Part shown: piece after piece, positions 17,472-48,580 of the stretch
Position numbering within the stretch: the first letter of the stretch is position 1
How the letters are laid out: every line of letters starts with the position of its first letter
Source: Planctomycetota bacterium
GTDB taxonomy: Bacteria; Planctomycetota; GCA-002687715; CAIWVZ01
NCBI GenBank assembly: GCA_044222185.1
Contig: JBGANV010000003.1
Coordinates: 416,001-480,000 of the forward strand
Length of the DNA stretch: 64,000 nucleotides
Direction of reading: 5' to 3'
The notes under the pieces: model-generated
Told to the model about the DNA's origin: nothing
The model's input: the letters and a program-made list of their open reading frames with translations, nothing else
The model's database searches: none
Program-made: the position numbers and the translations under genes

Positions 17472-17506
17472 GCCCGTATGATATCCGCGCCCGGCGGACG
17501 ACGGCC
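17472..17506. promoter_or_regulatory. Putative bidirectional promoter with overlapping -10 elements
   Basis: The 35-bp divergent gap holds TATGAT (+, 17477-17482) overlapping TATCAT (-, 17483-17478). The minus-strand hexamer lies 6 nt before the ECF ATG. Confidence 0.55.
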
Positions 17507-23038: not shown

Positions 23039-25267
23039 TCAGAACACGATGCAACGCGCCGTGGACGACGTTGGGCCGATCACGCCACCCGTGACATCCA
23101 CGCAGATCGCGTCGAACGTCAGACCGATCGGCTCGAAGTGCGGACCGAACACCTGACTCGTCCCCGTCGCCTGGAAGTGCACGGGGAGCGCGCCCAGGGG
23201 AAGCTGGAGCTGGAAGATCAGGTAGGAGAGGTCGCTGAAATAGAGGCCCGCGTAGGGGCCCGTTCCCAACCCGTTCGCGAGCCACTCGCCGCTGAAGAGG
23301 TTGTAGTACTCGTGCCCGGCCACGAGCTTCGAACTCGTCCCGAACAGTGCCGTCCCCGACCCACCCGGCTGACTGAAGCCGATCGTCGGCCGGAGGTCGT
23401 CGTACCGCGCGACCGACCGGGTGCCGCCCGCGGCTATCCGCGCGAAGGCGAAACCGGCCGGAAGGCTCGGAATGGTCGATTGCCCCACGGAATTCCGCCC
23501 CCACGCGACGAGCGATCCGTCGCTCAGCCGCGCGAGGGAGTGGTCGTCACCAGCCGCGATCTCGACGTACGCGCGCCCCGGCGGCGCGGCTGGCGCCGTC
23601 GACTGACCGTAGGTGTTGTCACCCCACCCCACGACCGTTCCGTCGCTTCGCAATCCGAGGGCGTGCCGACGCCCCGCGGCAATCGCCAAGTACGTGAGCC
23701 CCGGCGGGAGCAATGGCACGTCGGTCTGGGACACATCGTTCAGTCCCCAGGCTTGGGCGGAACCGTCGCTCATCCGCGCCAGCGAGAACCGCTCTCCAGC
23801 AGCGACGGCGACGAACGTGACACCGGCCGGGAGTACGGGGACCGCGATCTGGCCGAACCCATTGTTACCCCACGCCACCACGCTTCCGTCGCTGCGCAGC
23901 GCCAGGGTATGGAAGTCGCCGCCCGCAACGCCCGAATATGTCAAGCCCTGCGGTAGCGGCGGAACGTTGCACTGTCCGGCGATGTTCCATCCCCACGCGG
24001 TGAGCCCGCCGTCCGAACGTCGCCCGAGCGAATGGTAGAAGCCGGCTGAGATTTCGACGTACCCGACGCCCGGCGGCAGACTCGGCACCGATGCCTGACC
24101 AAAAATCGCGTACCCGAAACCGACGACAGTCCCGTCACTCCGTCGGACCAACGTGTGCGTCGGGCCGACGGCGACGTCCACGTCCGCCGCGGTCGATGGC
24201 GGCGATGGGAAGTTGCACTGCGAGTTTGCGTTCGCGCCCCATGTGACCACGCGACCGTCGCTCCGGCGGGCCGCGCTGTGATTCAGGCCGGCCGCGATCT
24301 GGACGTACGTGAGGCCTGACGGCAGGACAGGCACGTTGCACTGGCTGTCGGCGTTGTTCCCCCAGGCGACGATCGACCCGTCGCTCCGGCGCGCCAGCAT
24401 GTGGCTACCCCCGGCGGAGACGTTCACGTAGCCGAGCCCTGGTGGAAGTGGCGGCACCGTCATCTCGCCGTAGGAGTTGCCGCCCCAGACGACGATGACG
24501 CCGTCGCTCCGACGGGCTGCGATCGCGGTCAACCCGACAGTCAGTTCGACGTACGTCAGCCCCGGGGCCAGCGGCGGCACGAGCCCTCGGCCGTTCGAGA
24601 TATCGCCCCACACGACGATCGAACCGTCGTTGCGCCGTGCGGCGCTCGTGTTGCCGCGAGCCGAGACCTCGACGTATGTGAGTCCCGGCGGGAGCTGGGG
24701 GACGACGCATTGGGCACTCAAGTTCAAGCCCCAGGCGACGACCGCCCCGTTGCCGCGAAGCGCGAGCGTGTGGTTCGCGCCGGCCGCGATCTGGACGTAG
24801 GGCGCTCCAGGCACCAGCAGCGGCACGGCGAGTTCGCCGTTCAGATTGCCGCCAAAGGCGCGCAAGGATCCGTCCGTCACGAGCGCCACCGTATGACTCG
24901 TCCCGATCGAGACCTGCACGTACGACTGCCCCTGCGGCAGCGGGAGGATGTTGCACTGCCCCGCTGAGTTCTCGCCAAAGACGACGAGCGATCCGTCGGC
25001 GCGGCGAACCGCCGTGTCGACGGACCCGGCCGCGACGTCGACGAACGTCTCGTCACCGAGGCGATCATCGACGACCTGGCCGCCCCAGCCGCGAACGAAA
25101 CTCTGTGCGCTCAGTCCGCAGGCAGAGCCGAGCCACACCGCGAGGATTGCCAGCGTCCGAATCGGTCGCCAACCCGCCAACGATCCGACTGTAAGGTCGT
25201 CGGACCCGCGGTTACGCGTCACGCGCACTCTCATCGCCCGAACGCCCGAATGCTCCCGCATGGCCAT
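23039..25267 (-). CDS. Secreted RCC1/BLIP-II repeat protein (about 14 blades) with a C-terminal conserved module
   Basis: ATG 25267 after GGAGGG. Signal region ending GLSA|Q. About 40-aa repeats VP.LP.GL.YV.IAAG..H.LARRSDG.VVAWG.N..GQ. Confidence 0.9.
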   Translation of the reverse strand: MAMREHSGVRAMRVRVTRNRGSDDLTVGSLAGWRPIRTLAILAVWLGSACGLSAQSFVRGWGGQVVDDRLGDETFVDVAAGSVDTAVRRADGSLVVFGENSAGQCNILPLPQGQSYVQVSIGTSHTVALVTDGSLRAFGGNLNGELAVPLLVPGAPYVQIAAGANHTLALRGNGAVVAWGLNLSAQCVVPQLPPGLTYVEVSARGNTSAARRNDGSIVVWGDISNGRGLVPPLAPGLTYVELTVGLTAIAARRSDGVIVVWGGNSYGEMTVPPLPPGLGYVNVSAGGSHMLARRSDGSIVAWGNNADSQCNVPVLPSGLTYVQIAAGLNHSAARRSDGRVVTWGANANSQCNFPSPPSTAADVDVAVGPTHTLVRRSDGTVVGFGYAIFGQASVPSLPPGVGYVEISAGFYHSLGRRSDGGLTAWGWNIAGQCNVPPLPQGLTYSGVAGGDFHTLALRSDGSVVAWGNNGFGQIAVPVLPAGVTFVAVAAGERFSLARMSDGSAQAWGLNDVSQTDVPLLPPGLTYLAIAAGRRHALGLRSDGTVVGWGDNTYGQSTAPAAPPGRAYVEIAAGDDHSLARLSDGSLVAWGRNSVGQSTIPSLPAGFAFARIAAGGTRSVARYDDLRPTIGFSQPGGSGTALFGTSSKLVAGHEYYNLFSGEWLANGLGTGPYAGLYFSDLSYLIFQLQLPLGALPVHFQATGTSQVFGPHFEPIGLTFDAICVDVTGGVIGPTSSTARCIVF

Positions 25268-25466
25268 GGCAGCCCTCCATCCCGTAGACGAATGAGATCC
25301 TGCGTGCACGGGGCCAACCGCAGAATCCCAATCCGCGTCCCGGAGAGCGTACAGGAGGATTCGTGGATGGGCGAACGACCGTTGCCCGATCCGGCGTCGA
25401 CCTCCTGCGAACGGACCGCGCCGAGCGCCGCATCTTTTTTTGGCGGGCCATGGCCAGCCCGCCGGC

Positions 25467-26258
25467 TCAGGCGTCGCACGGGACGCGTCGGCGGAGTGCT
25501 CCTGGAGTCGAGCCCGCGAGGCCCCGAAACGCCGCGACGAACGCGCTCTGACTCCGGTAACCACATGCCTTTGCGACCTGCTTGACGCCGTGGCCGTCGC
25601 TGACGAGACGGATCGCATGAAGCAGGCGGAATCGCTTCCGCCACTCCTCGAATGTCTGCCCCGTCTCGAGAGGAAACAGCCGCTGCGCCGTGCGGACACT
25701 GACCCCGTGGCCACGGCACAACGACGCAAGATCCGAGGTGCTCGCCGGCTCCGCCTGCACGCGCGCCGCGATCGACGCAATGCGCGCATCGCGCGGCCAG
25801 ACCAATTCATGCGGCGCGCGAGCGCCTGACGCGATCTCGTGCGTCAACAATCGCGCGAGGGCCAGATGCCATGGGATCCGCTGATCGACGGCACTGAGCG
25901 TCGAGATTCTGGCGACGACCTCGCGCAGGAGCGGACTCACGGCGACCACGCAGCACTCTGTCGGCAAATCGACACCGCGTCGCGGTCGGACGTAGAGCAT
26001 CCGCAATGACGTCGGCGTGCAGATCTCCAGCTCGTAACGCGCCCCGGCCGGAGCCCAGACCGCGTTTGAAGCCGGCGTCGACCACGCGCCGTGCGGAGTG
26101 CGGACGATCATCACGCCGTCACCGGCTGCGACGAGGCGATGCCAGGCCTTCGTCGGCGACGTCGTGCTCACGCCAGGAGCGCAGGCAACGACCATGGTAC
26201 GGACGAGCAGGTGGCGCTCGTCATCAGGCGTCAGCGCGGGTTGGCGCTTGAACGACAT
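25467..26258 (-). CDS. AraC family transcriptional regulator (cupin + HTH)
   Basis: N-terminal cupin (AVWAPAG). C-terminal HTH SVRTAQRLFPLETGQTF.EWR...VAKACGYRSQSAFVAAFR..GSTPG. Start is ATG 26258 or GTG 26294. Confidence 0.9.
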   Translation of the reverse strand: MSFKRQPALTPDDERHLLVRTMVVACAPGVSTTSPTKAWHRLVAAGDGVMIVRTPHGAWSTPASNAVWAPAGARYELEICTPTSLRMLYVRPRRGVDLPTECCVVAVSPLLREVVARISTLSAVDQRIPWHLALARLLTHEIASGARAPHELVWPRDARIASIAARVQAEPASTSDLASLCRGHGVSVRTAQRLFPLETGQTFEEWRKRFRLLHAIRLVSDGHGVKQVAKACGYRSQSAFVAAFRGLAGSTPGALRRRVPCDA

Positions 26259-26315
26259 CAGTTGGCGCTCCACGGACTCGCGATCGCGCGGCACCGCAGG
26301 TATACGTGACCATCG

Positions 26316-26355
26316 CGCACGCGCCGCACGCGCCGCACGCGCCGCACGCGCCGCA
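26316..26355. repeat. Tandem 9-bp repeat (CGCACGCGC)x4 plus a partial copy
   Basis: Four perfect copies at 26316-26351 then CGCA, directly before the AGGAG RBS in the divergent AraC/VOC gap. Confidence 0.9.
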
Positions 26356-26368
26356 GGAGCTCTCGATC

Positions 26369-26761
26369 ATGTCCAATCATCTGTCGCATTTCGCCGTCAG
26401 TGCCGATGACACGCAACGAGCCCGCCGATTCTACGAGCGCGTGTTCGGCTGGGGATTCGAGCCGTTCGGGCCGCCCGAGTTCTACCTCTTGCACACCGAC
26501 GGACCGGGCAAGGGCGGGCGGGTCCCCGGGGCGCTCCAGAAACGCTTCGAGGTCGTGCCCGGCGTCCACCTCTCCGGTCCCGGTTTCGAGTGCACGATCT
26601 CCGTGCGCGACGTCGATGCCGTGACGGCGCTGGTCAAGAAGCATGGCGGAAAGATCCTGATGCCGAAGGCCACGATCCCGACCGTGGGGACGCTGATCCG
26701 ATTCGCCGACACCGAGAACAACGTCGTCTGCGCCATGCAGTACGAGAATCCGGCGTTGTGA
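26369..26761 (+). CDS. VOC/glyoxalase family protein
   Basis: ATG after AGGAG. HFAVSADD..RARRFYE.VFGW and GGKILMPK.TIP.VG....F.D.E.N. Confidence 0.9.
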   Translation: MSNHLSHFAVSADDTQRARRFYERVFGWGFEPFGPPEFYLLHTDGPGKGGRVPGALQKRFEVVPGVHLSGPGFECTISVRDVDAVTALVKKHGGKILMPKATIPTVGTLIRFADTENNVVCAMQYENPAL

Positions 26762-27246
26762 GCGGCCGGCGCGCCTCGCTCACTGCGGTCGTGCTCCTGG
26801 CAGCTTCGTGCGGCTCCATCGAAACTCCGACCCACGAAGGAATGACCATGTCCATCAGCTCGCCCCTCGCATCCGCGTTCGTCATGGCGTTCGGCGTGAC
26901 CGTCGACGCCGCCCGCTGTCGCGCGTTCTATGAAGGCAAGCTCGGCTTGCGCGTCGTCAGCGACGACCCCATGGCGATCACCTTCGCGTCCGGACCCAGC
27001 GTGATCCGCATCCAGAAGTTCAAGGAGTTCGCACCGAAGCCTTACACGGTCCTCGGGTGGACCGTCTCCGACATCCGCACCACCGTCGCCCAGCTCACGG
27101 CCGCCGGCATCGCGCTCGAACACTTCGGCTTCATGCCGATGCGGGACTCGACCGGCATCGCGACGTTCGACACCGGCGACCAGGTCGCGTGGTTCAAGGA
27201 TCCCGACGGGAACATGCTCGGAGTGACGCAGTTCGCGAAGGGGTGA
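26758..27246 (+). CDS. VOC/glyoxalase family protein, possibly a lipoprotein
   Basis: RAFYEGKLGL and VAWFKDPDGNML. A GTGA-coupled start at 26758 gives VVLLAAS|C; the alternative start is ATG 26842. Confidence 0.85.
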   Translation: MSGRRASLTAVVLLAASCGSIETPTHEGMTMSISSPLASAFVMAFGVTVDAARCRAFYEGKLGLRVVSDDPMAITFASGPSVIRIQKFKEFAPKPYTVLGWTVSDIRTTVAQLTAAGIALEHFGFMPMRDSTGIATFDTGDQVAWFKDPDGNMLGVTQFAKG

Positions 27247-27267
27247 TGAGGGGCAAGCCGTCCTGCC

Positions 27268-29401
27268 TCACCGCTCCGGCGGCAGGTGGCGTGCCGTTCG
27301 GGCACGCGTGATCTGCGATTCGAGGACGTCCAGCTCGTCGGCATCGACGCGGAGCGTGGTGGACGTCGGGCCGTGGCCGACCGCGATTTGTGCCGCGGGT
27401 GAGATGACGAACGATTGATCGTCGTCACGACACCGGACCACGACGACGGCGCGCAGCGCGCACGGCTCGGGGACGGGCACGGCAAGTGCGCCTGAGGCTG
27501 ACAGGGCGCATTCGTGATGGAACGGATCGCGATCCCAGGGGTGCGCCGGCTCGGGGCACGCAATCACGCGGAGCAAGACGCGTCGGCCAAAGCGCGAGAG
27601 ACGATCGAACGGCTCGAGGGCGATCGAAAGCGGAATGGCCGGCCGGAGCGTGACGTCGACGGCAGCCGCGGGCGCGGGGACATAGGCCGTGCGCCAACCG
27701 GCATGGACCACGCGGATCTCCGCCGCATCGCGCAGGATCCACGCGTCGCACACGCCGTCGGCTCCGACGATCGGCATGTCATGTTCAGCCAGCCACGACG
27801 CCTTGCCGATCTCCACGCGAGCCCCAGCGGCTGGGCGCCCATCGGGCAGGTGGACCGAAACGCGGATGCGGCGCACGAGCGCCGTGATGTCGAACGGGTT
27901 CAGCTCCGGCGGCGCGAGCGTCTCGCCCTCGCGAATGGTGAACGTTCCGATGGAGACCTTGGGCGCGCCCTCGATCAGGAGCTGGAGGAGGAACTCGTAT
28001 TGACCGGGCGCGAGCGTGCAGAGATCCTGGGACGAAGTCTCTTGTGTCGCGAACATCCACGTGAGTTCGTCACGACCGGTACGGACGTCGCGAATCACGA
28101 GCTTGCCTTCGAGGCTCTTGGGCGAGCGGAACCAGCCCACGAGTTTTCCCGGACGGTGAAGCACGATCTTCACCGCGCGGTCCCCGGCGACGAACGGAAC
28201 GACGGTGATCGGGTAGCCGTCGAGGTTGGCGCTGAGATGGCGGCCCTCTTCCCAATCCTCGGTCGGGATGGTGAAGCTGCCCTCGGAACCCGTTCGCACA
28301 TCGCCAAAGAATGAATTGAGCATCAAATCCGGCGCGTGCTCCCGAAGAAGGTTCTCGACCTTGCCGTCTCTCGACGTCCAGACCGCCACACCCGCCAGCG
28401 GCTCGCCAGCCGCATCGACGACCGTTCCGGCGACGAGCACGGAGCGCCGAGACACCGTGCGCGTTCCGAGGTCGCGGACTTGCGCGGGTGACATCGCGGC
28501 CAGGTCGACCCAGGCGAAACGCCAGGAGTCGGCTTCGCGTATCGGTCGCAAGCGCAGTGACTTCGCAGAGACCGGCCGTTCCTGCGAGTCGACGATGAAG
28601 ACACCCGGGACGCCGATCGTGGCGACGCCCTCGCCATCGGTGCGACAACGCGAGAACTCGCCGATCGAGCCAGGCCCCTCGAAGAGGGTCGACAGCTCCT
28701 CGTTCGCGAACGGATGTCCCGCCTCGTCGACGATCCGCACGCGAACGGTCGCCCGCGCGGGGGCGAGATGCACGGTGATGACGTCGGCGAACCCGTCGCG
28801 CGCGAACGCGCCAAAACGGCGATGCTTTTCCTCGAGTGCGTTCGCCAGGACCCACGCCCCGTCGAGCACGTGAACGTCGACGTCTCGGCGGTACACGGCG
28901 CCATCCCGCTGGGCCGATGCCAATACGACCTCGCCCGTCGTCGTCGTGACGACGGACGTGACGTCGGATTCCAAGTCCTGAAACTCGCCGCCGCCCCACT
29001 GCGTTTCGTATTCGACGACGACCGGCGACGTCACGAGCTTCTCATCCGGGCCCACGACCCGGACCAGCACGTCTCCGAGGGGCGGCAGGCGAATCTCCAC
29101 GGATCCCGAGGGAGGCGCGAGGGAATCGATCCAAAGCGATGGATTCGTTCCGTCGGAGATGGGAATGGCGGCCTGGATCGCCAGGTCCGGCGCCACGATC
29201 CGATCGTTCGCGCGCCGCGCGCGTCGCAGCGACGATCGGCGAGGTTTCCGCCGGCGGCTTGGTTTCCGAGGCCCTGCGATCGAGGGCGCCATCCTGGCTC
29301 GCACCGTGATTGCGAAACGTGAAAAGCACCGCCGCGACGACGACGGCGACCGTGATCGCCAACGCCACCGTCCTGCGACGGAACGTGCTCACGCCAGTCA
29401 C
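27268..29401 (-). pseudogene. Membrane-anchored carboxypeptidase-regulatory-like repeat protein, frameshifted near 29200
   Basis: The N-terminal anchor (RRRTVALAITVAVVVAAVLF) is in the 29401 frame. The repeats (VRIVDEAGHP, GTVVDAAGEPLAGV, LPDGRPAAGARV) are in the 27268..29304 frame. Confidence 0.7.
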
Positions 29402-29626
29402 GGGTGACTCCGGCGGTGAGCGTGAACGCCACGGATCACCGGCGAGCGCCGAGTGTACACCGGGCGTCGCGAGGTGGTGCGTCGCTCGGTCGCGAGGTCA
29501 CTGCGGAAAGGCCGTGCGGTGCGTGAGGCAGGGCGGGAGCCCTGCCATCCGGCCAGGCGGGAGCCTGGCGCTCCGCGCAGCGCGCCCTGAACGAGCGACG
29601 GGGCGATAGCGGAAGAGGAATGGGCT

Positions 29627-30577
29627 CTACCCGGCGGCGCCGCGAGTCGCGAGCCAATCGACGACGGGCTGACGTCCGGCTTCGCGCGCGACCGCAAGCG
29701 GTGTGCGGCCAGATCCGTCGCGGAGATCGAGTGGGGCGCCCGCCGAGACGAGGAGCTCGACGACTTCCAGGCTCCCGCTGCGCGCGGCCTCGTGGATCGC
29801 GCTCGTGTGGCCGTCCATGAACGAGGCAAGCGTCCGATCGGCACCGAGGCGCTGTTTCACGAGCCACGTGAAACCCCAGCTCGCCGGAGCACAGATGCCG
29901 AACGCGCGCGGCGTGCAGCGCAGCCGATCGTCGCTCGCTTGCGGATCCGCCCCGGCGGCAAGGAGCGCGGCCACGATCTCGGCCGAGCCTCCAAAATGAG
30001 CCCAGTGGAGCGCGGTCCCACCCATGTAGGCGCGGAACGAGAGGTCCGGCCCCTTGGTGAGGAGAAACCGGGCGACCTCGACGTGGGCGTTGCGACACGC
30101 GATGTAGAGGGCGTCCGACACTTGATCGCGCGCGCCGGGCGGCGGGCTCGGCAGGAGACTCCCGTCGGGTGCGTAGCGCGAGCTTCCGGTCTGCGACGAA
30201 CCGGGAATCAATCCGCCGCCAGCATCGAAGAACGCGGTGACCTGCGGAAGGAGCCCCATCCCAGCCGCGCAGAAGAGGTCGGGCACGACGCCGGCGCGCA
30301 CCATCGTGTGCGCGAACACCATGGCGTTGCAGGTGACGGCCCACGACAGCGGCGTGTGATTCCACTGCCCGAACCTCGCCTTGGGATCGGCACCGAACGC
30401 GAGGAGGAGGACCCCGATGTGCGCGTCGTCGAACTCAGCGGCCCGGTGCAATGGACTCGCGCCGTCGGCGGCCGCGCCGCGCGCGAGTTGCGGACGGCTG
30501 CGCAGAAGCGACTCCACGAGGGGTCGGTCACCGGTGCGAATCGCCGAGAACAGGTCCTCGAGGTCGGCGTCGGTCAT
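29627..30577 (-). CDS. Ankyrin repeat protein
   Basis: SPLHRAA, TPLSWA, TALHWA, AIHEAA..G..EVVELLV.AGA and GRTPL. Confidence 0.92.
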   Translation of the reverse strand: MTDADLEDLFSAIRTGDRPLVESLLRSRPQLARGAAADGASPLHRAAEFDDAHIGVLLLAFGADPKARFGQWNHTPLSWAVTCNAMVFAHTMVRAGVVPDLFCAAGMGLLPQVTAFFDAGGGLIPGSSQTGSSRYAPDGSLLPSPPPGARDQVSDALYIACRNAHVEVARFLLTKGPDLSFRAYMGGTALHWAHFGGSAEIVAALLAAGADPQASDDRLRCTPRAFGICAPASWGFTWLVKQRLGADRTLASFMDGHTSAIHEAARSGSLEVVELLVSAGAPLDLRDGSGRTPLAVAREAGRQPVVDWLATRGAAG

Positions 30578-30612
30578 GAGTCCTGATCAGGCTCCACGAA
30601 TCGTGCCGGCCG

Positions 30613-32985
30613 TCAACGATCCGTCCCCGATTCGCCCTCCTCGGCATCCGTGATCTGGTCCAGGAGCACCCGCGCCGGGCCGAAGCTCGGGTCGATCTGC
30701 AACGCACGCTGACATGCCGCGGCGGCCTTCCGGGCCATCTGACCGAAGTTGTAGAAGCGAGCCTTCGAGAACCAGACGAGCGCCGAATCGGGTTCGAGCT
30801 CGGTGGACGCCTCGATGGCCTCGACGGCTTCCAGGCTCCGACCACTCACGGCGAGCGCGGCCGCGAGGAGTCCGCGAGCGAGGCCGGACCGCGGGCGAAG
30901 GGCCACTGCAACCTGCAGATGCTCCAGGCTGACCGCCGCGCCCGCCGCGCGGGCCGCCGGACCGTCGGCCACGTGCTTCAGCGCGATCGCCCCACGGACG
31001 AACTGCGCGAGGTACGAATCCGGCCGGCGTCGGATCGTGAGGTCGAGCAGCCTCTCCCCCTCGTCGAATCGTGACTTCACGCCGAAGAGGGCGCCCGCCA
31101 GGTGAAAGAGGTCTTCCGCCGATCGCGCTCGAAGCGCGTCGTCCGTCAGCATCGGCCCGAACGTGTCCTCACCGGTTTCGGTGTACCGGCGACTGGCGGC
31201 ATCGACGGCGGTGTACCAAGGGTCCTGTTCGCTCGATGCGATCCAAGCCTCTGCCGCGCGTCGCGCGACGTCGAGTTCCGCATCCCTCGGAGCAAAACTG
31301 CCCGCAGGTGCAGGCATCCCCCACAACTCCTGCGAACGACGCAGTGCGTGCGCGGCCATGCGCCACAGCTCGAGGTTGCGGGCGTGCAGGTCGGCCATCC
31401 GCTGGGCGTCGGCCGCCGCCGAAGAGGCACCGAGTTCGAGTCCGAACTGACGCCAGAACCGCAGGGCCTGCTTGGCGACGCCGGTGAAGTCCATTTCGCC
31501 GCCGAAGCCGTAGCTCATCGTTCCGAGGGTCGCATCGAGATCTTCGATGTTCTCGCGCAGCAGCTGATCCCGCTGCAGGAAGTCGAGTCGCTTGCGCTCG
31601 GCCTCGGCGCGATTGCGCTCGGCCTCCGCGCGATCACGCTCGGCGACGGCGACGACGCGAAGGCGTTCTTCGACGTCGGCCTTGCCGGACGCGCCGATGC
31701 CGTAGCTCAGGAGCGCGGACGCGATGAGCACGAGCACGACCAGGCCCGTGAGCGTACTCGCGAGCGCCGTGTTTCGCTGGCCCCAGCGAAGCAGGCGGAG
31801 GACCGGGCCCGCCGCCCGCGCGCGAATGGGTTCGAGCTTCCGCACGCGCCGCAGTTCGTCAGCGAAGTCGGCGGCGGACTGGTAGCGGCGGTCGCGGTTC
31901 TTCTCGAGTGCCGTCTCGATGACGACCTTGAGGTCACGGGGGACGGCCGGGTTGGCCCGCCGCAGATCGGGCGGGTCGTCGGCGATGATCGTCTGGTACA
32001 GGGCCTCGCGCGTCGGAGCCGCGAACGGCCGCCGCAGGGTCAGGCACTCGTACAGCGTGACGCCGAGCGACCAGACGTCCGTGCGGCGATCGAGTCGGAT
32101 GCGTTGCCCGGTGATCTGCTCCGGACTCATGTAGGCCGGCGTCCCGAACAACTCGCCCGTGCGTGTGAGCGTCTGCGTATCCGAGCCCTCGTCTCGTGCG
32201 AGACCGAAGTCCATGATCACGGGCTCGCCGTCCGGCGTGACCATGATGTTCGCAGGCTTGATGTCGCGATGGATGACGCCCGCCTCGTGCGCCGCGTGGA
32301 GCGCCCGCGAGGCCTTCTCGACGATCTCCAAGAGGCGCACCACGTCCGCGAACCCGGGGACTTTCAGCCCCACGGCCGCGGACGTCACGGAGTCGGTGCT
32401 CGGCCGTGCCGGCGCCGGATCGTCTTCCAACTCGACGAGCGACGAGTCGGCCGCGGTGGGGCCCGCGCTGCGCGTGTTCGAGATCAGGTTCGCCAGCGTC
32501 TCGCCCTCGATGAATCGCATGGCGATGTAGGCGATCCCATCGGTCACGTCCGCATCGTGGACTGCGCAGATCCCCGGATGATCGAGCTGCGATGAGACCT
32601 CGGCTTCGCGCCGGAACCTCTGAACGGTCCCCTCGCTGCCCGGCCCCAATCCAGGAAGCACCTTCAGCGCCACGCGACGGTGCAGACGCTCGTCCTCCGC
32701 GAGGTACACGATCGCCTGACCGCCGCGCCCGAGTTCCCGCACGACGCGGTAGGGCCCGATGCGGCTCCCGGGCTCGCCCGGGCGGCCGCGCGGCGAGACC
32801 GGGCGCGCCACGACGGTCGCCGGTTGTGCGCTGCCGAGAGCGGCGCCGTACTCGCGGGCGATCGACACGTCGTCGCCGGGAAAGCGCGCGAGGTACTCCG
32901 GCAGATCCAAGACACGCCCCACGGCCACGTCGGCCGAGAGCGCATCCAGGAAGCGTTGAAGCGGTGTTCGCGAGTCGCTGCTCAT
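30613..32985 (-). CDS. Transmembrane Ser/Thr protein kinase with C-terminal TPR-like region
   Basis: GRGGQAIVY, VALK, RFRREA, HRDIKPAN, DFGLAR and GTPAYMSPE. TM segment. TPR-like A..L.P motifs at the C-terminus. Start chosen by homology of the N-terminus to the other kinases. Confidence 0.93.
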   Translation of the reverse strand: MSSDSRTPLQRFLDALSADVAVGRVLDLPEYLARFPGDDVSIAREYGAALGSAQPATVVARPVSPRGRPGEPGSRIGPYRVVRELGRGGQAIVYLAEDERLHRRVALKVLPGLGPGSEGTVQRFRREAEVSSQLDHPGICAVHDADVTDGIAYIAMRFIEGETLANLISNTRSAGPTAADSSLVELEDDPAPARPSTDSVTSAAVGLKVPGFADVVRLLEIVEKASRALHAAHEAGVIHRDIKPANIMVTPDGEPVIMDFGLARDEGSDTQTLTRTGELFGTPAYMSPEQITGQRIRLDRRTDVWSLGVTLYECLTLRRPFAAPTREALYQTIIADDPPDLRRANPAVPRDLKVVIETALEKNRDRRYQSAADFADELRRVRKLEPIRARAAGPVLRLLRWGQRNTALASTLTGLVVLVLIASALLSYGIGASGKADVEERLRVVAVAERDRAEAERNRAEAERKRLDFLQRDQLLRENIEDLDATLGTMSYGFGGEMDFTGVAKQALRFWRQFGLELGASSAAADAQRMADLHARNLELWRMAAHALRRSQELWGMPAPAGSFAPRDAELDVARRAAEAWIASSEQDPWYTAVDAASRRYTETGEDTFGPMLTDDALRARSAEDLFHLAGALFGVKSRFDEGERLLDLTIRRRPDSYLAQFVRGAIALKHVADGPAARAAGAAVSLEHLQVAVALRPRSGLARGLLAAALAVSGRSLEAVEAIEASTELEPDSALVWFSKARFYNFGQMARKAAAACQRALQIDPSFGPARVLLDQITDAEEGESGTDR

Positions 32986-33397
32986 GCGTCGGTTGCGGCC
33001 GCGGTGCCGACGGGCCGCGCGGTCGAAGGCGGAGATGATACCGCGCCGCTGCGGGCGTAGGCCGCGGAGCCTGGACGGAGCTGCGCGGTTGCACGGGATT
33101 TCGGCGGGATCGGATGCGGGCGGTGAGCCTGGGCCGCACCGTGATCGCCGTTGGTTGGACCGCGCGAGACGCGCGCCAATCCTGCCGATTCCCGACGCGA
33201 CGTCGGTGAATCGACGCTCCTCACGAAAGCCGATCGGAGCGTTCCCTGCGACCCACCGTTCGTACTCGTCGGACGCGGGTGACCGAGCCTTCATCGTTGC
33301 AGCGGAACTCTCCTGATCGCCACGGCATTGTCACCGGGACAAGTACGCCGTCGCGCGGGCGGACCTGCCACTACGATGGGCGCCGCCCCAGCAAGGA

Positions 33398-35479: not shown

Positions 35480-35554
35480 TCCCATCCGGCGTGTAGAGTC
35501 TCGCTCGTGGTCGGACGGGCCGCGACCGGTCCCTCCCCCACCTGGAGCGAGCCC

Positions 35555-35964: not shown

Positions 35965-35986
35965 ACCCACTGACGACGAGCCCATC

Positions 35987-37231: not shown

Positions 37232-37240
37232 CGGCCGCAA

Positions 37241-39448
37241 TCACGGGTCTGGCCGGGACGCCGGCTCGTCGATCCCGCTCCACGGTTTCAGATCGGCGAG
37301 CGTGCTCGTCGCTCCTGCCGTCACCGGCACGCCCCACTTCGTGAAGAAGGGCGAGAGGTCGCGGCCTGCGGCACGGCTCATCCGCACGAGCCACTGGTCG
37401 CGTTTGTCTCCGTCCGACCTGGGACGCTCCGCCGCCGCGAGCGCGGCGTACTCCGCGAAGACGCGACGGTACAAATCCCAGCCGAACGCCTGCTGAATCT
37501 CCGCGTACATGCGGAGCGCGAGGAACGGATCCGACTTCCACTTGTCGAACGGCGCGCCGCTCGCGATGTGCTTGCGCGCGACGTCGGCCTTCCCCTTCAC
37601 CTGGGGAGAATCCCATGGCTTCACGCCGCCCACCCGCTCGGAGACGTAGAGCGAGAACAGGTTGTTCGTCACTTCGCCGGTTCCACCAAAGGTCCACGCA
37701 TCGCGCTGGCGGTTGTGTCCGAGCTCGTGCCAGAAGCCCCAGCCGGACGTTCCGTTCGTCAGGTACTTCACGTCGACCATGCGCGCGCCCGCATCGAGGT
37801 GCGTCATGATCGGGTAACCCGAATGCATGTAGCCGGCGCTGATCTGCACATCGGTCACGATGCGCTCGGGCCGCTGGTAGAGAGGCTCACGTCCCAGCTC
37901 CTCGTAAAGATCCATGACGCGGTCCCAGAACGCGAGCAGCGACTCCGGGTCGTCGAGCTTGCGGACGTGCTCGGACTTCAACGTCAGGACGATCTTCCGC
38001 GTCGCGAGCTCGGCCCACGGTCCGGGCGCGTGGCGGATGGTCGTTCGCCACTCGTCGACGGAGGTCACTCCCCGCCGGTACAACGGCGCGTGCACGACGC
38101 CGCCGATGGCGACGCGGACGGAGGTTGCCTTGCAGCCCTTCGGCACCTCCAGGTAGACGAGCCCTCCGTGCATGGTCGTGACGCGAAGGCTTGGACGATC
38201 GATCGGGAACGTGGCCGTCACCTCCGGATCGCGCGACCACGAATCCTTGCTCCACAGATCGTCCTCGTGGCACCCCACGCGCAGGCGCAACCCGAGCCTT
38301 GCCGCGTCCGCGGGAACGTCGATCATCACTGCGTCGCCCGCCGTCGCGAAGAGCCCAAGGCTCTGCCAGCCGTCGATCGCCAGCTCGACGTCGCGCTCCA
38401 CCCGAACGCGCGGGACGTCGCGCGGCACCACACCGGGAAACCATGCGGCATCGGGTGCGGCCGGGACCTGATCGATCGGCAGCCGCGCAGCGTCCTGATG
38501 GCGAAGGACGAGGCCAAGGCGCGCGATCACGTCCGCACTCTTCAGCGGCGAACCTTCTCCGGGCAGCTTCGGCGCGGACGCTGCGACGGCACCGCGAACG
38601 CGCGGCAGGAAGGTCGCGTCGTCCGGAGGCAGGGCACGGAGCGCATCGATGACGGTTCCGGTCAGGGCCGAAAGCCGCTTCGCATCGCGCTTCCCGCGAC
38701 TCTCGGTGGCGGAGAGAAGCTGGTCGAGAGCGTGCCCCGCGTGGACGCATCGACGGCGCTCCAGGTCCGTGTCCTGCGGCGGCATGCGCCCGAGGTATCC
38801 GTCCGACCACGCGAAGCCGGCCTTGCGGGCGAGTTGGTTGCCGCGGTGGTCCCGGTCGAGTCGCAATCCAGGATGGGTCTGCTTCCACCCCCACCCGAGC
38901 GAGGATGCGACGAACCCACCGCCGCGGAGGACGAAGCCTTCGACGTCGCCGAGTTGCTCCGCCGTCAAGTGCTCCGTATCGGCGACGATGACCGAGGCCC
39001 GCTCGATCGTGGACGGCCAGTCGAGGCCATGTCCGTCGACGACGGTGATCCCCGCTGCTCGGGCGCGCGCGCCGATCTCCGGAAGGTCGACGGCGAGCAC
39101 CGCGATCGTGGCATGGTCTCCCGCGGCCCAGCGCACGCAGTTCAGCACGAGCCTTCCGGTGTCGCCCTCGTCCATGGCGGCCTTGCCGAAGTAGCCGCCG
39201 TGACCGAACCCGACGACCCGCCCCTTCCCCATCCGCGCGGCGGCGACGGCGGCCTCGTCGCGCGCACCGTTCGACCACAGCGCCACGGCGAACGCCGACT
39301 CGCCGAAAACGACCAGAGGCCCGGGAGTCCCCGGCGCCGCGATCGCCTTCACCCCGGACAGCAGAGCATCGACGTCGGATCGAGTCTGAGCGCCCAGCGC
39401 GACGCCGAGCGCGGCCCACAGAACGTTGCAGCGGAGTAGGTGGCGCAT
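37241..39448 (-). CDS. Secreted M60-like (TCAF/enhancin-like) zinc metallopeptidase
   Basis: Signal peptide ALGA|Q. WQSLGLFA, GGLVY, APGPWAEL, DVQISAGYMHSGYP and gluzincin motif HELGH...GEVTNN. Confidence 0.93.
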   Translation of the reverse strand: MRHLLRCNVLWAALGVALGAQTRSDVDALLSGVKAIAAPGTPGPLVVFGESAFAVALWSNGARDEAAVAAARMGKGRVVGFGHGGYFGKAAMDEGDTGRLVLNCVRWAAGDHATIAVLAVDLPEIGARARAAGITVVDGHGLDWPSTIERASVIVADTEHLTAEQLGDVEGFVLRGGGFVASSLGWGWKQTHPGLRLDRDHRGNQLARKAGFAWSDGYLGRMPPQDTDLERRRCVHAGHALDQLLSATESRGKRDAKRLSALTGTVIDALRALPPDDATFLPRVRGAVAASAPKLPGEGSPLKSADVIARLGLVLRHQDAARLPIDQVPAAPDAAWFPGVVPRDVPRVRVERDVELAIDGWQSLGLFATAGDAVMIDVPADAARLGLRLRVGCHEDDLWSKDSWSRDPEVTATFPIDRPSLRVTTMHGGLVYLEVPKGCKATSVRVAIGGVVHAPLYRRGVTSVDEWRTTIRHAPGPWAELATRKIVLTLKSEHVRKLDDPESLLAFWDRVMDLYEELGREPLYQRPERIVTDVQISAGYMHSGYPIMTHLDAGARMVDVKYLTNGTSGWGFWHELGHNRQRDAWTFGGTGEVTNNLFSLYVSERVGGVKPWDSPQVKGKADVARKHIASGAPFDKWKSDPFLALRMYAEIQQAFGWDLYRRVFAEYAALAAAERPRSDGDKRDQWLVRMSRAAGRDLSPFFTKWGVPVTAGATSTLADLKPWSGIDEPASRPDP

Positions 39449-39759
39449 GGCTGAAAGCTTCGTCGGACGATCCCTCGGGTCAAGTCGGGACGCTGGATTC
39501 CCCCCCCACGTCGCACGCACGCCGAAGCGCCGTGAACGTCACGGGCGCGCGGAGTCCACGCGAAACGACCGGCGGATTCGTCCTCTGGGGTCGCGGGTTC
39601 GACCGTGGCCGACGTTTGGTCTCGCTCGGAGAGAACGCGCAGTTATCCTCCGCGACCAACATGGACTCGCCGGCGGGAATCCGTTCCCGTCGGCGCGCGT
39701 TTCGATCGAGGCCTCCACCCTGGGGCTGAGACCGCCTGGCAAACCACCGGAGATCCGCT

Positions 39760-40149
39760 TTGCTCGCACGCATCCTCGGACCGTACTCCAACACCGTCTA
39801 CACGATCCTGCGCGTCCTCGTCGGCCTGCTCTTCGCGTTCCACGGAATGCAGAAGATCTTCGGCGTGCTCTCGCCGCACGCCGTCGAGCTGTGGTCCCAG
39901 ATCTGGTGGGGCGGGCTCATCGAGCTCGTCACGGGCCTGGCCGTCGCCGTCGGCTTCTGGACGACGTGCGCCGCGTTCCTCGCGAGCGGGACCATGGCCG
40001 TCGCATACATCCAGTTCCATTGGAAGTTCGCCTTCGACTCCAAGTTCTTCCCGGGCGTGAATCAGGGCGAACTGGCCTTGGTGTACGCGTTCCTGTTCCT
40101 CTACATCGCGTGCCGTGGTGGTGGACGGTGGAACTGCGACAAGCCCTGA
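39760..40149 (+). CDS. DoxX family membrane protein
   Basis: TTG after GGAG. LRVLVGLLFAFHGMQKIFG, IELVTG, SGTMAVAY and N.GELA. Confidence 0.92.
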   Translation: MLARILGPYSNTVYTILRVLVGLLFAFHGMQKIFGVLSPHAVELWSQIWWGGLIELVTGLAVAVGFWTTCAAFLASGTMAVAYIQFHWKFAFDSKFFPGVNQGELALVYAFLFLYIACRGGGRWNCDKP

Positions 40150-40413
40150 CGCTTCACCCGTGTCTCCGGCGGTGACCTGCACTTAGGACGTTCATCGGTC
40201 GCCGACCACGTACCGGATCACCGGTCGTGGCGCGACCGAGCGCCTCGACCGCGCCGTGTGAATGCGCGTCTGCCGGCTTGCGATCGTGCCGAGACGTGTT
40301 TCGATCTGCCCCCACACGCGGCGAGCGATCGCTCGATCCATGTCCGGCGACATGGGCACCGCCTGGTGGCATGCCGCTCGAACGAACCTCGGCCAAGACG
40401 AAAGGCCCACCCG

Positions 40414-40971
40414 ATGCTTCGCAAGCTCTTCCTGTTCCTCCTCGCCGTCATCGTCATCCTCGTCATCGTCATCGCCACGCGCCCGGCGACGTTCCGCGTC
40501 GAGCGCTCGACGTCGATCGCGGCGTCTCCCGAGGCGGTGTTCGCCCAGGTGAACGACTTCCACAACTGGGTCGCGTGGTCGCCGTGGGAGAAGCTCGACC
40601 CGGAAATGAAGCGTACGTTCGGCGGCCCGGCGTCAGGCAAGGGATCGACCTACGGCTGGGTGGGCAACGACAAGGTCGGCGAAGGGAAGATGACCATCGA
40701 GCAGAGCACGCCTCCAGCCGCACTCGGGATCAAGCTCGAGTTCATCAAGCCGTTCGAGCAATCGAGCGACGTGAAGTTCGCGTTCTCGCCGGAGGGCGCG
40801 GGGACGAAGGTGACGTGGTCCATGGAAGGAGAGAACAACTTCCTTTCGAAGGCGTTCTCGCTGTTCATGGACATGGACAAGCTGGTCGGTGGCGACTTCG
40901 AACGCGGCCTCGCGTCGCTGAAGACGACGGCCGAGGGCGCCGGGGCCCAGAAGGCCACGACGACGAAATGA
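40414..40971 (+). CDS. SRPBCC (START/polyketide cyclase-like) family protein with N-terminal anchor
   Basis: Hydrophobic N-terminus. F.VERS..I.A.PE.VF..VNDFH.W..WSPW and GGDFERGL..LK. Confidence 0.92.
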   Translation: MLRKLFLFLLAVIVILVIVIATRPATFRVERSTSIAASPEAVFAQVNDFHNWVAWSPWEKLDPEMKRTFGGPASGKGSTYGWVGNDKVGEGKMTIEQSTPPAALGIKLEFIKPFEQSSDVKFAFSPEGAGTKVTWSMEGENNFLSKAFSLFMDMDKLVGGDFERGLASLKTTAEGAGAQKATTTK

Positions 40972-41116
40972 CCGGCCTGCGGCCATCGACGGCCGCGTGC
41001 ACGGTCGCGGAACCGGCGGCCGGCGGACTGCGTCCTCGACGCGGCCACGCCGACTTCCGGAGCGCAGGCGTGTGTTCGATCGCGGCGCCGCGTGACGCGG
41101 AACCTGGCGGATGCCG

Positions 41117-41647
41117 ATGGCGACTCTCTACATCCTCGCATTCCCGGACTTCGACGAGGCCGACGGCCGCTTCGTCGACTCGTTCCGCACCGCCCACGAT
41201 CTTCGGAAGTCGAAGCTCGTCGCGCCCCACTTCACTCTGATGTTCGGCACCGACGTTCACGGCCCGGACGTGACCGTCGACGCGGCGAGGGCCGCGGCCG
41301 CGTGCACACCGCCGTTCCAGTTCGCATGCAAGGAAGCACGACTGGGCACCGACCCGAGTGATTCACGCGGTCGCGTGTTTCTGGTCCCCGAGACCGGTAG
41401 CGCCGAGCTGGCACTCCTGCACCGACGGGTCCACGCGGGTGCGCTCGCACCGCTGCTCACGGATGGAAGGCCCTTCGTTCCGCACATCACGATCGGCGAG
41501 ACGGCCGACATCGCCGGCGCCGCGGCCCTCTGCGCGCCGTTGAATCGAAGCGGACTCCATGTTCGCGGCGCGGTGCGCCACCTCTCCGTCTGCGCCCTGG
41601 CCGGGGATGTCCTCACCTCGATCGCGCGGCTCCCACTTGGTCACTGA
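41117..41647 (+). CDS. 2H phosphoesterase (2'-5' RNA ligase family)
   Basis: Two HxT motifs, PHFTL and PHITI. Start is 41111 or 41117. Confidence 0.85.
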   Translation: MATLYILAFPDFDEADGRFVDSFRTAHDLRKSKLVAPHFTLMFGTDVHGPDVTVDAARAAAACTPPFQFACKEARLGTDPSDSRGRVFLVPETGSAELALLHRRVHAGALAPLLTDGRPFVPHITIGETADIAGAAALCAPLNRSGLHVRGAVRHLSVCALAGDVLTSIARLPLGH

Positions 41648-41966
41648 CCTCGCGCCACGCGCGCACATCCGCACACATGGGAGCCCGACCGTGCGACATC
41701 GAACCCACGATGCCGCTCGGCATGTCCGAACGCGCGGCGCGGGCGTGGTTTTCACCGCTCGATGCGCGATTTCGAACGCAAGCCGTCGGTGAATGCGCGC
41801 ACCGAATACGCCGCGGTCGAGGGAAACAAACCAAACCACCCCCATGCGAACCCTGGGGCGCTCGCTCCCCGTGGCGCCGCATGACGTCGCGCCACGAAAC
41901 GAGGATTTCACCCGTGCGACACTGTTTGCGCACTGCGTCTATGATCTCGCCAACGGAGTGAACGAG

Positions 41967-44648
41967 ATGAGTGATGCGTTTTCCTGGCGGAGCCATGCGG
42001 CGATCGACCGCTCGATGACCCTTCTGTTCGCGGTGTTCGCGGTGCTGACGCACGTTGCGACGTCCCAATGCCCGGTTGCATTCGGACAACTCTCCGCGTC
42101 AGGCCTGCCCGGTCCCGCGAATGCAGTCGTCGAGTTCGATGACGGACGCGGGCCCGCATATTGGGTGGGCACATCCGGGGGCGTCGCACGGTGGGATGGC
42201 GCCACGTGGTCGTCCATCACATGCGTCGATCCGTCCGGTGTCCTGGCGGGTGTGGTGAATGCACTGGCGGTTCATGATGACGGCACCGGGCCTGCGCTCT
42301 ACGCGGGCGGGATGTTCTCGAGCATCGGCGGCGTCGCGGCGAACTCCATCGCGAAGTGGAACGGAACGACGTGGTCGCCGCTCGCGGGTGGGATTCCACA
42401 GCCAGGATTCGCCGTCGCCGTGCGGGCACTCCTGTCACACAACGAAGGCCAGGGGCAGCGGCTGTTCGCTGCGGGGAGCTTCCGGACGGCTGGAACCACG
42501 GCGGTCCCAGGGCTGGCGCGATGGAACGGATCCGCATGGTCCGCGGTAGGAACGGCGACCGGCGGAGCAGCACAGATGTTCGCGCTCGCTGCGTTCCCGC
42601 CTGGGCCATCCGCGCAGCTTCACGTCGGTGGCGGGTTCAATGGCTTCGCGGGGACGGCCGCAGTGAACGTCGCCCGATGGAACGGCACTTCGTGGTCTGC
42701 GGTCGATCCAGGCGCATTCTCGGGCAGTGACTCCGTCTACGCCCTCGAGAACTATGACGACGGCAACGGCCCCCGTCTCTACGCCGGAGGACAGCTGCCT
42801 ACCTTGGGGCACATCGTGCGTCTCGTTGGAAACAGCTGGACGACGCTCGGACCGAGCCTCGGCATCAGTGCGAGCGGCGGCGTTTTTCCCAGCGTCCAGT
42901 CCCTCGCAGCCCACGGGACGGCACCAAACAGTGCTCTCTTCGTCGGCGGAGTGTTCACGAGCGCGGGCCCGGTGTCGACGCCGAACGTCGCGACCTGGAA
43001 CGGCACCTCGTGGGCCGCGGCCGGTGCAGGCCTGGACGCCATCGGGTTCTTCAGCTCGAACGTCGCGGGGCTCCGCTCGGTCTCCTCGTTGAACGGTCCC
43101 GAGGTGATCGCCACGGGATTCGTCCGGAGTTCGGGCTCGCAGGGAGTCGTCAACGTGGCGCGGTTCAGCGGAGGGTCCTGGTCCTCCGTGGGACGAGGGC
43201 TCGCGAGTTCGAGCGTCGAAAGCGTCGCCGCCATGAACGACGGAACTGGACCTGCCATCTACGCCATGGGCGCGGGGACGTGGCCTGCCGGAAACACGGC
43301 GGGTGGCGGCGTGGTCAAACTCGGCGCGTCCGGATGGGATTCCGCGTTTGGCACGGGAACGACGGGAAACGGCACGATCTCCAAGGTGATCCAACCCGCG
43401 ACGACGGGCTGGCCGCAAGTGATCGCCGCGGGCTCCTTCTTCACCATCGGAGGCGTCGCGGCGAACAACGTCGCGGCCTGGAACGGGACGAGTTGGGCGC
43501 CGCTCGGCGGCGGCTTGACCTCAGGCCCTTCAGCATCGAGCGTGCTGGTCTACGACATCGCGATGTACAACGATGGCACCGGTCTTGCGCTCTTCGCCGT
43601 GGGCCAGTTCTCGGTCGCCGGAGGACAAACGGTCAATCACATCGCGAAGTGGAACGGCACCGTGTGGAGTTCCGTCGCAGGCGGGATCGGAGGCGTCGGC
43701 GAGATCGTTCGCACACTCGAGCCGTTCACCGATGGATCGGGGACCGCTCTGTATGTCGGCGGGAACTTCACGACCGTGGGCGGACTTGGCGGAACGCCCG
43801 TCGTCACGCGGCGCGCGCTGGCTCGGCTTTCGGGAGCCGGTTGGTCGCAGGTCGGGCCAGGGATCACGACGGGCGACGTGTACGAGCTGAAGACGATCGC
43901 CGGTGTCGGTGGTTCGGACCTTTTCGTCATCGGCCAGTACACCTTCGCTAACGGCGTCGCGTCGCTGGGACGGTATCGCACCGGTAGCGTCCAACAGGTC
44001 GCAGCGCCGGCACCGTTCCCGGTACACGACGCCGCCATCTTCGACGACGGCACGGGCGCGACGACGTACGTCGGCACCACGTTCAGCCCGTTCATCGCCG
44101 GGAATCCATCGGGGCTGCTTCGACACAACGGGAGCGCCTGGGTCGTGGCGGGTCCGGGCGTCGTCGACGGCAACGTGAGCGCCGTCGACGTCCTGGACGA
44201 CGGCCACGGCCCGCGCCTGGTCTTCGGCGGTTCGTTCAATTCGGTCGGTGGGCGGTTCACCGGCCCAGTGGCGACCTACGGCGCCGAGACGCCGATCGCG
44301 TTCGTCGCGCAGAGCGCAGGAGCGGGAACGCCGACGAGCGTGACGTTCGATCGCCTCCGTTTCGCCCACGAGTACTTCGGCATCTTCAGCGTCGACATCT
44401 GCCCTGGACCCGTTGGATCCGGCCCCTATCTGGGGTTGTGCGTGCTGCCGGCGAGCATCCCATTCATCGACCTGCAGATCTCGGCCCCGATCGGAGTGAT
44501 CCCGTTCCACTTCCTCTCCAACGGTCCGACGATCACCTCGCCGCCGTTCGCACTCGCGACGGGATTCACGTTCGAGTGCCTCTGCCTCGAAGTCGTCGGC
44601 GGCACCCTCGGGTGCGTCTCTCCGGTGACCCGGTTTTCGGCTCAGTAG
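41967..44648 (+). CDS. Secreted beta-propeller repeat protein (WNG / DDG.GPALY repeats) with a C-terminal conserved module
   Basis: ATG after GGAG. Signal region ending VATS|Q. More than 10 repeats of V.AL..DDG.GP.LY.GG.F...GG..A..IA.WNG..WS. Confidence 0.88.
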   Translation: MSDAFSWRSHAAIDRSMTLLFAVFAVLTHVATSQCPVAFGQLSASGLPGPANAVVEFDDGRGPAYWVGTSGGVARWDGATWSSITCVDPSGVLAGVVNALAVHDDGTGPALYAGGMFSSIGGVAANSIAKWNGTTWSPLAGGIPQPGFAVAVRALLSHNEGQGQRLFAAGSFRTAGTTAVPGLARWNGSAWSAVGTATGGAAQMFALAAFPPGPSAQLHVGGGFNGFAGTAAVNVARWNGTSWSAVDPGAFSGSDSVYALENYDDGNGPRLYAGGQLPTLGHIVRLVGNSWTTLGPSLGISASGGVFPSVQSLAAHGTAPNSALFVGGVFTSAGPVSTPNVATWNGTSWAAAGAGLDAIGFFSSNVAGLRSVSSLNGPEVIATGFVRSSGSQGVVNVARFSGGSWSSVGRGLASSSVESVAAMNDGTGPAIYAMGAGTWPAGNTAGGGVVKLGASGWDSAFGTGTTGNGTISKVIQPATTGWPQVIAAGSFFTIGGVAANNVAAWNGTSWAPLGGGLTSGPSASSVLVYDIAMYNDGTGLALFAVGQFSVAGGQTVNHIAKWNGTVWSSVAGGIGGVGEIVRTLEPFTDGSGTALYVGGNFTTVGGLGGTPVVTRRALARLSGAGWSQVGPGITTGDVYELKTIAGVGGSDLFVIGQYTFANGVASLGRYRTGSVQQVAAPAPFPVHDAAIFDDGTGATTYVGTTFSPFIAGNPSGLLRHNGSAWVVAGPGVVDGNVSAVDVLDDGHGPRLVFGGSFNSVGGRFTGPVATYGAETPIAFVAQSAGAGTPTSVTFDRLRFAHEYFGIFSVDICPGPVGSGPYLGLCVLPASIPFIDLQISAPIGVIPFHFLSNGPTITSPPFALATGFTFECLCLEVVGGTLGCVSPVTRFSAQ

Positions 44649-48545: not shown

Positions 48546-48580
48546 GACGGCGCGCGAGCGTACCACGCGGCCGAATCACC

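Follow-up and report, generated by a model that had tools for sequence, protein, structure and literature searches.

A shared C-terminal domain on unrelated secreted proteins

A C-terminal domain of about 115–125 residues, called the tail below, was found on two secreted proteins with unrelated passengers in a 64,000-bp stretch of a Planctomycetota genome. The same domain ends at least 51 proteins of that genome and was present in every sampled genome of its order. It is probably a lineage-specific address for secreted proteins. The window, which is the whole stretch of DNA analyzed, covers G000:C7:416001-480000 of the source genome (G000; 7.08 Mb, 67% G+C, 16 contigs, 93.8% complete).

The first protein (731 aa) is encoded on the minus strand at 23039..25234, with its ATG at 25234 and its stop codon at 23039–23041, and carries an RCC1-repeat β-propeller as passenger (23447..25105). 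The second (893 aa) is encoded on the plus strand at 41967..44648, with its ATG at 41967 and its stop codon at 44646–44648, and carries a Rax2/DUF5122-type ('WNG') β-propeller (42066..44240). Both tails are 135 aa long, including a less ordered stretch ahead of the folded core. Copy 1 is located at 23042..23446 (minus strand; folded core at about 23042–23386) and copy 2 at 44241..44645 (plus strand; folded core at about 44295–44645). BLASTP of the two tails (23042–23449 on the minus strand and 44250–44645 on the plus strand) gave 40/125 identical (32%) and 62/125 positive positions with 2 gaps (68.6 bits, E 9e-21). The two passengers gave no alignment (best E 1.1), and Pfam assigned them to different families. 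The RCC1 protein matched RCC1_2 (E 4.6e-94, 12 stretches) and WD40_RLD (E 2.9e-77), and the propeller protein matched Rax2 (E 3.8e-8). These two copies, already flagged in the preliminary description, were the only ones in the window. That description had noticed that the tails align although the passengers are unrelated, as the E values now show. The positions it gave for the tails (23039–23390 and 44292–44648) correspond to the folded cores of the two structural models described below, in which the predicted local distance difference test (pLDDT) score is above 90 from about residue 20 of 135.

Read from the sequence, both N-termini begin with a basic n-region and continue with a hydrophobic core, followed by small residues and a Gln. 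By rule of thumb, the RCC1 protein has a predicted Sec signal peptide (25106..25234, minus strand, 43 aa) that contains the hydrophobic stretch IRTLAILAVWLG and ends with ...GLSA before Gln. That of the propeller protein (41967..42065, plus strand, 33 aa) ends with ...VATS before Gln-Cys. By reading, no hydrophobic stretch or lipobox was found in either window tail; the tails end with ...RCIVF and ...RFSAQ. This agrees with the earlier view that both proteins have Sec signals without a transmembrane or lipid anchor. The full open reading frame (ORF) of the RCC1 protein extends upstream of ATG 25234 (23039–25810, minus strand). This ATG is the likely start because the signal peptide comes right after it and the longer ORF overlaps an AraC-type gene (25470–26366). 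The full ORF of the propeller protein is 41793–44648 (plus strand), and GGAG is located 10 nt upstream of ATG 41967.

The tail family in the source genome

A hidden Markov model (HMM) was started from the two window tails and searched against 61,510 six-frame ORFs of the genome (domain E ≤1e-3). The first round found 19 ORFs, in each of which the match ended 0–13 residues before the stop; for copy 1 it ended 0–1 aa from the stop. The second and third rounds found 28 and 44 ORFs. In the third round, 42/44 matches reached to within 30 residues of the stop. Of the other two, one was weak and internal (E 1e-4; 595 residues short of the end), and the second stopped 59 residues short of it. A fourth round on 4,320 crude gene calls gave 51 proteins. 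The domain ended 0–30 residues from the C-terminus in 51/51 of them, and at most 9 residues from it in 48/51.

Gene calls and signal-peptide calls were made with our own crude rules. By reading, 32/33 tagged proteins inspected had Sec-signal-like N-termini. The automatic signal rule was positive for 40/51 tagged proteins and for 1,635/4,269 other genes, and a looser rule for 48/51 and 2,224/4,269, respectively. The rule is permissive; therefore, the signal-peptide result is an enrichment and not a proof. The preliminary description had expected of a sorting domain many copies, nearly all C-terminal and on signal-peptide proteins, and the 51 copies show this pattern.

Pfam was run on 40 tagged ORFs, and 30 of them matched at least one family. 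There were at least 12 passenger types. They included Rax2/DUF5122/DUF6087 propellers (7), RCC1, Peptidase_S8, Peptidase_C25 with propeptide, astacin combined with FG-GAP and LTD (2), Lectin_C, Laminin_G_3 (3), P_proprotein (5), LTD (5 more), FG-GAP (2 more), a Sortilin-Vps10-like domain and Ig. At least 7 paralogues paired a propeller-type passenger with the same tail. The tail of the window RCC1 protein was 65% identical to that of a Laminin_G_3 protein (L003) and 43% identical to that of the other RCC1 protein (L013). Since it is closer to the tail of a protein with a different passenger, tails have moved between passengers.

Distribution of the tail beyond this genome

Two tail profiles were used, A1 (22 tails) and the broader A4 (79 tails), on genome sets that were samples of the order and of the phylum. 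Among 41 genomes, A1 matched each of the 22 further genomes from the order of G000, which belong to four families, with 3–23 matches each (50 in G000). It matched 1/18 genomes outside the order, marginally (E 2.7e-4). A4 was searched against 301 genomes of the phylum (E ≤1e-5). Only 13 candidates per genome were scored, and the per-genome counts are lower bounds. G000 and 15/15 genomes of the order were positive, and 8/285 others had 1–3 weak matches each. The earlier claim of a lineage-specific domain is thus borne out.

A1 was also searched against 1,835,955,588 representative proteins and gave 507 matches at E ≤1e-3, 342 at 1e-10 and 124 at 1e-30. Among the best 150 of the 507 matches, 148/150 ended within 11 residues of the C-terminus, and 149/150 were a single stretch. 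The non-terminal exceptions were P0134, which has three TIG domains after the tail, and P0136. Tagged proteins in relatives carried S8, LTD, FG-GAP, propeller, β-helix and C-type lectin passengers, and Kelch and DUF7948 were further passengers outside this genome. In these relatives, 37/38 N-termini were signal-peptide-like. Because of this distribution, a putative sorting or anchoring role of the tail is well supported.

Other searches gave little. A related-locus search with the L001 tail alone found no relative. A tail-profile search among longer proteins found only 6 proteins, and any name they had was either 'trimeric autotransporter adhesin' or 'hypothetical protein'. The nearest ESM Atlas clusters were unnamed Planctomycetota proteins at 0.86–0.88, under the tool's threshold of 0.9 for a meaningful match. 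The taxa of these clusters and the two public contigs that best matched a neighboring gene, both from Planctomycetota metagenome-assembled genomes (55–57% identity), place the genome in the Planctomycetota. No description of the tail domain was found in full-text literature searches.

Predicted fold and conserved residues

Both tails were modeled using AlphaFold2. The mean pLDDT was 90.5 for copy 1 and 91.9 for copy 2, and the predicted template modeling scores (pTM) were 0.81 and 0.82. Both models are β-sandwiches of about 9 strands with one helix after strand 4, and copy 2 has the same strand order as copy 1. We are confident in the prediction that the tail is an FN3/Ig-like sandwich of about 115–125 residues.

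Foldseek found nothing in the PDB at E ≤1e-3; the top-ranking structure, an FN3 domain, reached E 7e-3 and a TM-score of 0.44. VIA-align against 48,161 chains gave best Z scores of 7.7 and 8.0, both for FN3/Ig domains, with a root-mean-square deviation (rmsd) of about 3 Å over about 90 residues. Several FN3 domains could be superposed (Z 7.4–8.0, rmsd 3.0–3.5 Å, about 90 aligned residues), a similarity at the level of the fold only. Neogenin, DCC and cytokine receptors supplied the best-matching FN3 domains. The sequence identity was 6–14%, and unrelated sandwiches also attain such Z scores. As a rule, FN3 domains are found in tandem and inside a protein.

Conservation was highest at E-Y-x-N-x-F-S of strand 3, at GxGPxxGL in the loop leading into strand 4, at a Gln that closes the helix, at LPxGxxPFHF and at the final ...S-x-V-x-R-x-x-V-Q. 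The conserved residues are located in loops and not in the core alone. Four cysteines are conserved in most copies, the RCC1 copy being an exception.

Comparison with known sorting and anchoring signals

Pfam and NCBIfam gave no family at E ≤1 for the two window tails. Pfam on 22 tails gave one He_PIG match (E 0.056), and PDB sequences searched with a tail profile gave nothing at E ≤10. These searches agree with the preliminary description, which had not recognized the module as a T9SS, PEP-CTERM, dockerin or SLH domain.

The tail resembles the T9SS (type IX secretion system) C-terminal domain in several ways. It is a single β-sandwich at the extreme C-terminus of Sec-exported proteins, it has dozens of copies per genome, and it is carried by hydrolases and adhesins, C25 peptidases and subtilases among them. 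The functional motifs of the T9SS tail are described as the C-terminus and the β3–β4 loop (PMC11285876), and conservation in the new tail is likewise centered on the β3–β4 loop and the C-terminal strand. There was no sequence or profile similarity. The type A T9SS tail (PF18962 Por_Secre_tail/TIGR04183) matched neither the two window tails nor the 22 tails at E ≤1. The 22 tails of A1 were compared by hhalign with 18 natural T9SS tails from two Bacteroidales genomes, and the probability was 0.3% (E 0.23). The T9SS tail has about 75 residues and the new tail 115–125, with an inserted helix. The T9SS fold is a seven-stranded 3+4 Ig-like sandwich, and the models of the new tail are sandwiches with about 9 strands and one helix. 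The C-terminal domain of PorU (6za2_B 1054–1156) could be aligned with the tail model (Z 6.5, rmsd 3.1 Å, 89 residues), at rank 45 among generic Ig/FN3 domains and tied with many unrelated ones.

The host also differs. Among T9SS models, the search covered SprA_N (PF14349) and Por_Secre_tail and left out PorV, PorU, PorZ and GldKLMN; both models had 0 matches in G000, G006, G013 and G019. In the two Bacteroidales genomes used as controls, SprA was recovered at E 3e-163 and 5.5e-187, together with 117 and 17 T9SS tails. The tail occurs in Planctomycetota, and the survey of Abby et al. (2016; PMC4793230) lists T9SS in 60/97 Bacteroidetes genomes and in no other clade.

The GC-type dockerin (NF041540, dockerin_GC) is also a C-terminal anchoring module on varied secreted proteins. 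It did not match the tails and had 0 matches in the whole genome. Its model has 67 positions, and by reading its Asp/Gly-rich repeats resemble calcium loops, not a β-sandwich. Dockerin repeats are generally described as calcium loops. Across the related genomes, NF041540 was found in 1/41. Its sole matches were two copies at G002:C569:538-1096 (loci L181 and L182), on a 2.5-kb contig of an 83%-complete metagenome-assembled genome; this contig may be a binning stray.

Like PEP-CTERM/exosortase and LPXTG/sortase signals, the tail is a C-terminal tag common to many unrelated secreted proteins of one lineage. Those signals consist of a short motif, a membrane helix and a basic tail, whereas the tail is a folded domain without a hydrophobic end. 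Exosortase_EpsH (PF09721) had 0 matches in G000, with a positive Methanocaldococcus jannaschii control; sortase was not searched. Any partner of the tail is probably none of the known kinds of T9SS (of which SprA and the tail model were searched), exosortase or cohesin.

Exchange of C-terminal modules on C25 peptidase homologues

The passenger of the tagged C25 peptidase L006 was used to collect 47 homologues (E ≤1e-10). The new tail was present on 2/47, P0017 (the genome's own protein) and P0156. Precomputed Pfam assignments gave a FlgD_ig T9SS-type tail on 7 proteins, and TIGR04183 confirmed it in P0162, P0165, P0193 and P0201. P0184 ended with Dockerin_1. By reading, P0158 and P0160 ended with Asp/Gly-rich dockerin-like repeats that matched no model, and P0191, P0196, P0197 and P0199 ended with a hydrophobic segment and a basic tail. 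C25 homologues end in varied modules; therefore, the new tail occupies the place that recognized sorting or anchoring signals have in other lineages.

By reading, 14 of the homologues had another conserved, unnamed tail ending with ...LSN.L.A.(T/Q)P. They fall within P0163–P0182 and belong to other lineages, one being named Engelhardtia mirabilis. This ending may be a further undescribed terminal tag.

Gln after the signal peptide

In the window, Gln follows the predicted signal peptides at 25103–25105 (minus strand) and 42066–42068 (plus strand). By a crude rule, [AGS]Q was located just after the hydrophobic core in 47/48 tagged proteins, 892/2,224 other signal-like N-termini and 12% of random windows. 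Gln was the first polar residue in 531/1,403 signal-like N-termini, compared with its 9% share of the proteome. In relatives, 34/37 tagged proteins had [AGS]Q and the remaining three had PQ. The motif was found in 116/187 cases at loci of the order, versus 16/37 and 10/49 in two outgroup Planctomycetota. This pattern resembles the 'Q-rule', which is described as Bacteroidetes-specific in the reports concerned (PMC5837995; PMC10653852). If it is real, it would extend that feature beyond the Bacteroidetes.

No Glu_cyclase_2 (PF05096) was found in the genome. An M28-family gene at G000:C5:5208-6476 (minus strand; L190:1438-2706), one of 16 M28 genes in the genome, matched solved structures of type II glutaminyl cyclases along almost its entire length (6qql_A, E 8.6e-19; human QC 2afm_A, 3e-15). 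Its best match overall was 7d18_A, 'Peptidase M28' (2.5e-37). By these similarities, it is a candidate enzyme for pyroglutamate formation.

Proposed function of the tail

We consider it fairly probable that the tail is a lineage-specific C-terminal address domain of secreted proteins, and that a shared envelope partner reads its loop face and C-terminal strand. The tagged proteins would be exported across the inner membrane by Sec, with signal peptides that are recognized by sequence only and are followed by Gln. The tail would then fold in the periplasm as the FN3/Ig-like sandwich predicted with high confidence, and the four cysteines conserved in most copies would fit an oxidizing compartment. 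One conserved face might be bound by a common cell-envelope partner. This face would be made up of the loop that joins strands 3 and 4 (GxGPxxGL), the next helix with its final Gln, LPxGxxPFHF and the C-terminal strand with its free end (...R-x-x-V-Q/F). The partner may move the passenger across the outer membrane, hold it there, or both.

A broader proposal is put forward only tentatively, and we lean against it. In it, one Planctomycetota order has a new system for secretion or attachment at the outer membrane, and the tail is its cargo tag. The system would be a functional analogue of T9SS of independent origin. It may be coupled to the Q-rule, with Gln exposed once the signal peptide is cleaved, and to the type II glutaminyl-cyclase-like gene.

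Several observations weigh against the address role. The crude signal rule also accepted roughly half of the genome's genes. As the commonest extracellular sandwich, the fold gives no specific clue. The last residue varies, being Q in 95/150 best matches, and F in 18/38 and Q in 12/38 tagged proteins of relatives. No partner was found among the neighbors of 51 + 38 tagged genes in 15 genomes, which were generic. In G000, Ser/Thr kinases were present within ±4 genes of 28/51 tagged genes (hypergeometric p 1.3e-4, about 2-fold), in a genome with about 151 kinase paralogues by BLAST clustering. Extracytoplasmic function (ECF) sigma factors were near 9/51 (p 0.04). At 40 loci of 14 relatives, only generic families recurred. 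ABC ATPases were found in 10 genomes, with sulfatases, SUF, MacB/HlyD and FG-GAP/UnbV as other recurrent neighbors; kinases were rare there and their enrichment was not seen.

Two tagged peptidases also failed as partners. The C25 peptidase L006, a relative of the T9SS sortase PorU, was considered as a PorU-like sortase. The PorU model matched the C25 domain of the homologues weakly (E 1e-8 to 1e-31, far under the cut-off). L006 was rejected as a conserved partner because it was confined to 1/23 genomes of the order, G000 itself (E ≤1e-10). The subtilase L004 was rejected as a universal component, with orthologues in 7/23 genomes of the order. Full-length ones (54–57% identity) were found in G019, G013, G017, G006 and G011, and a shortened one in G004. 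With L004 as query, no orthologue was found in families f2 and f4, where other proteins with S8 and the tail exist. The preliminary description had proposed an undescribed lineage-specific domain with its own partner machinery; the domain and its lineage specificity stood, and the partner was not found in the neighborhoods of the 15 genomes or in the two candidate peptidases.

Alternatively, the tail could be a carbohydrate- or ligand-binding module, similar to carbohydrate-binding modules (CBMs) or lectins. It would keep enzymes and adhesins attached to a substrate outside the cell or to glycan of the cell itself, with no dedicated machinery and no role in export. We regard this as unlikely. 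A β-sandwich of 115–125 aa has the usual size and fold of a CBM, aromatic and His residues are conserved (EYFNLFS and PFHF), and neither the neighborhood nor the peptidase searches gave a partner gene. CBM74 and a GH76 accessory domain were among the weak fold matches, CBM74 only at Foldseek E 0.04 and TM-score 0.31. However, CBMs occur at N-terminal, internal and tandem positions, whereas the tail is single and terminal in 51/51 and 148/150 cases. No glycoside hydrolase was found among the Pfam-assigned passengers, and no Pfam CBM matched the tail at E ≤1.

The tail could also be a folding or stabilizing appendage similar to PPC or P-domains, removed or inert after export and without an addressing role. 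It follows peptidases (S8, C25 and astacin) in several proteins and has the same generic fold as such appendages. We find this improbable. Most passengers are not peptidases but propellers, RCC1, lectin, LTD and FG-GAP proteins, and no Pfam PPC or P_proprotein match was located within the tail. Moreover, the loop motifs are kept across unrelated passengers and tails have been exchanged, which points to a shared external partner and not to an intramolecular role.

A very divergent T9SS tail served by a cryptic T9SS would fit the terminal position, the signal peptides, the C25 and subtilase passengers, the PorU alignment and a Gln after the signal peptide as in Bacteroidota, but it is close to refuted by the failed profile comparisons, a domain length some 40 residues above the 75 positions of the T9SS model, the lack of SprA_N and Por_Secre_tail in G000 and three relatives with positive controls, and the restriction of T9SS to Bacteroidetes in the survey of Abby et al. 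(2016; PMC4793230).

To our knowledge, little is known about how Planctomycetota transport proteins across the outer membrane and retain them on the surface. As an address domain, the tail on about 50 secreted proteins per genome would define the cargo set of one route, and pull-down or phylogenetic profiling could use it to find the partner. Several hundred 'hypothetical' proteins would also be better annotated. Abby et al. (2016; PMC4793230) speculated that unknown secretion systems remain in clades where few have been identified.

Other features of the window

An FG-GAP repeat protein is encoded at 44829–47885 (plus strand), directly downstream of the propeller gene. In place of the tail, it ends with about 300 residues of Gly-rich low complexity (GGxGGxG runs). 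A 1,079-residue ORF at 56267–59503 (plus strand) contains five eukaryote-type immunoglobulin I-set/Ig_3 domains (E 3e-53). Its G+C content at the second codon position is high (0.63), and a candidate ORF is located on the opposite strand at 57106–57876. The window also contains four genes for Ser/Thr kinases and one for an ECF-type sigma factor. Of the kinases, two have fused FGE-sulfatase domains and one has fused WD40 repeats. These five genes are located at 17282–20329 (plus strand), 20149–22839 (plus strand), 30616–33330 (minus strand), 48584–52297 (minus strand) and 47916–48575 (minus strand).

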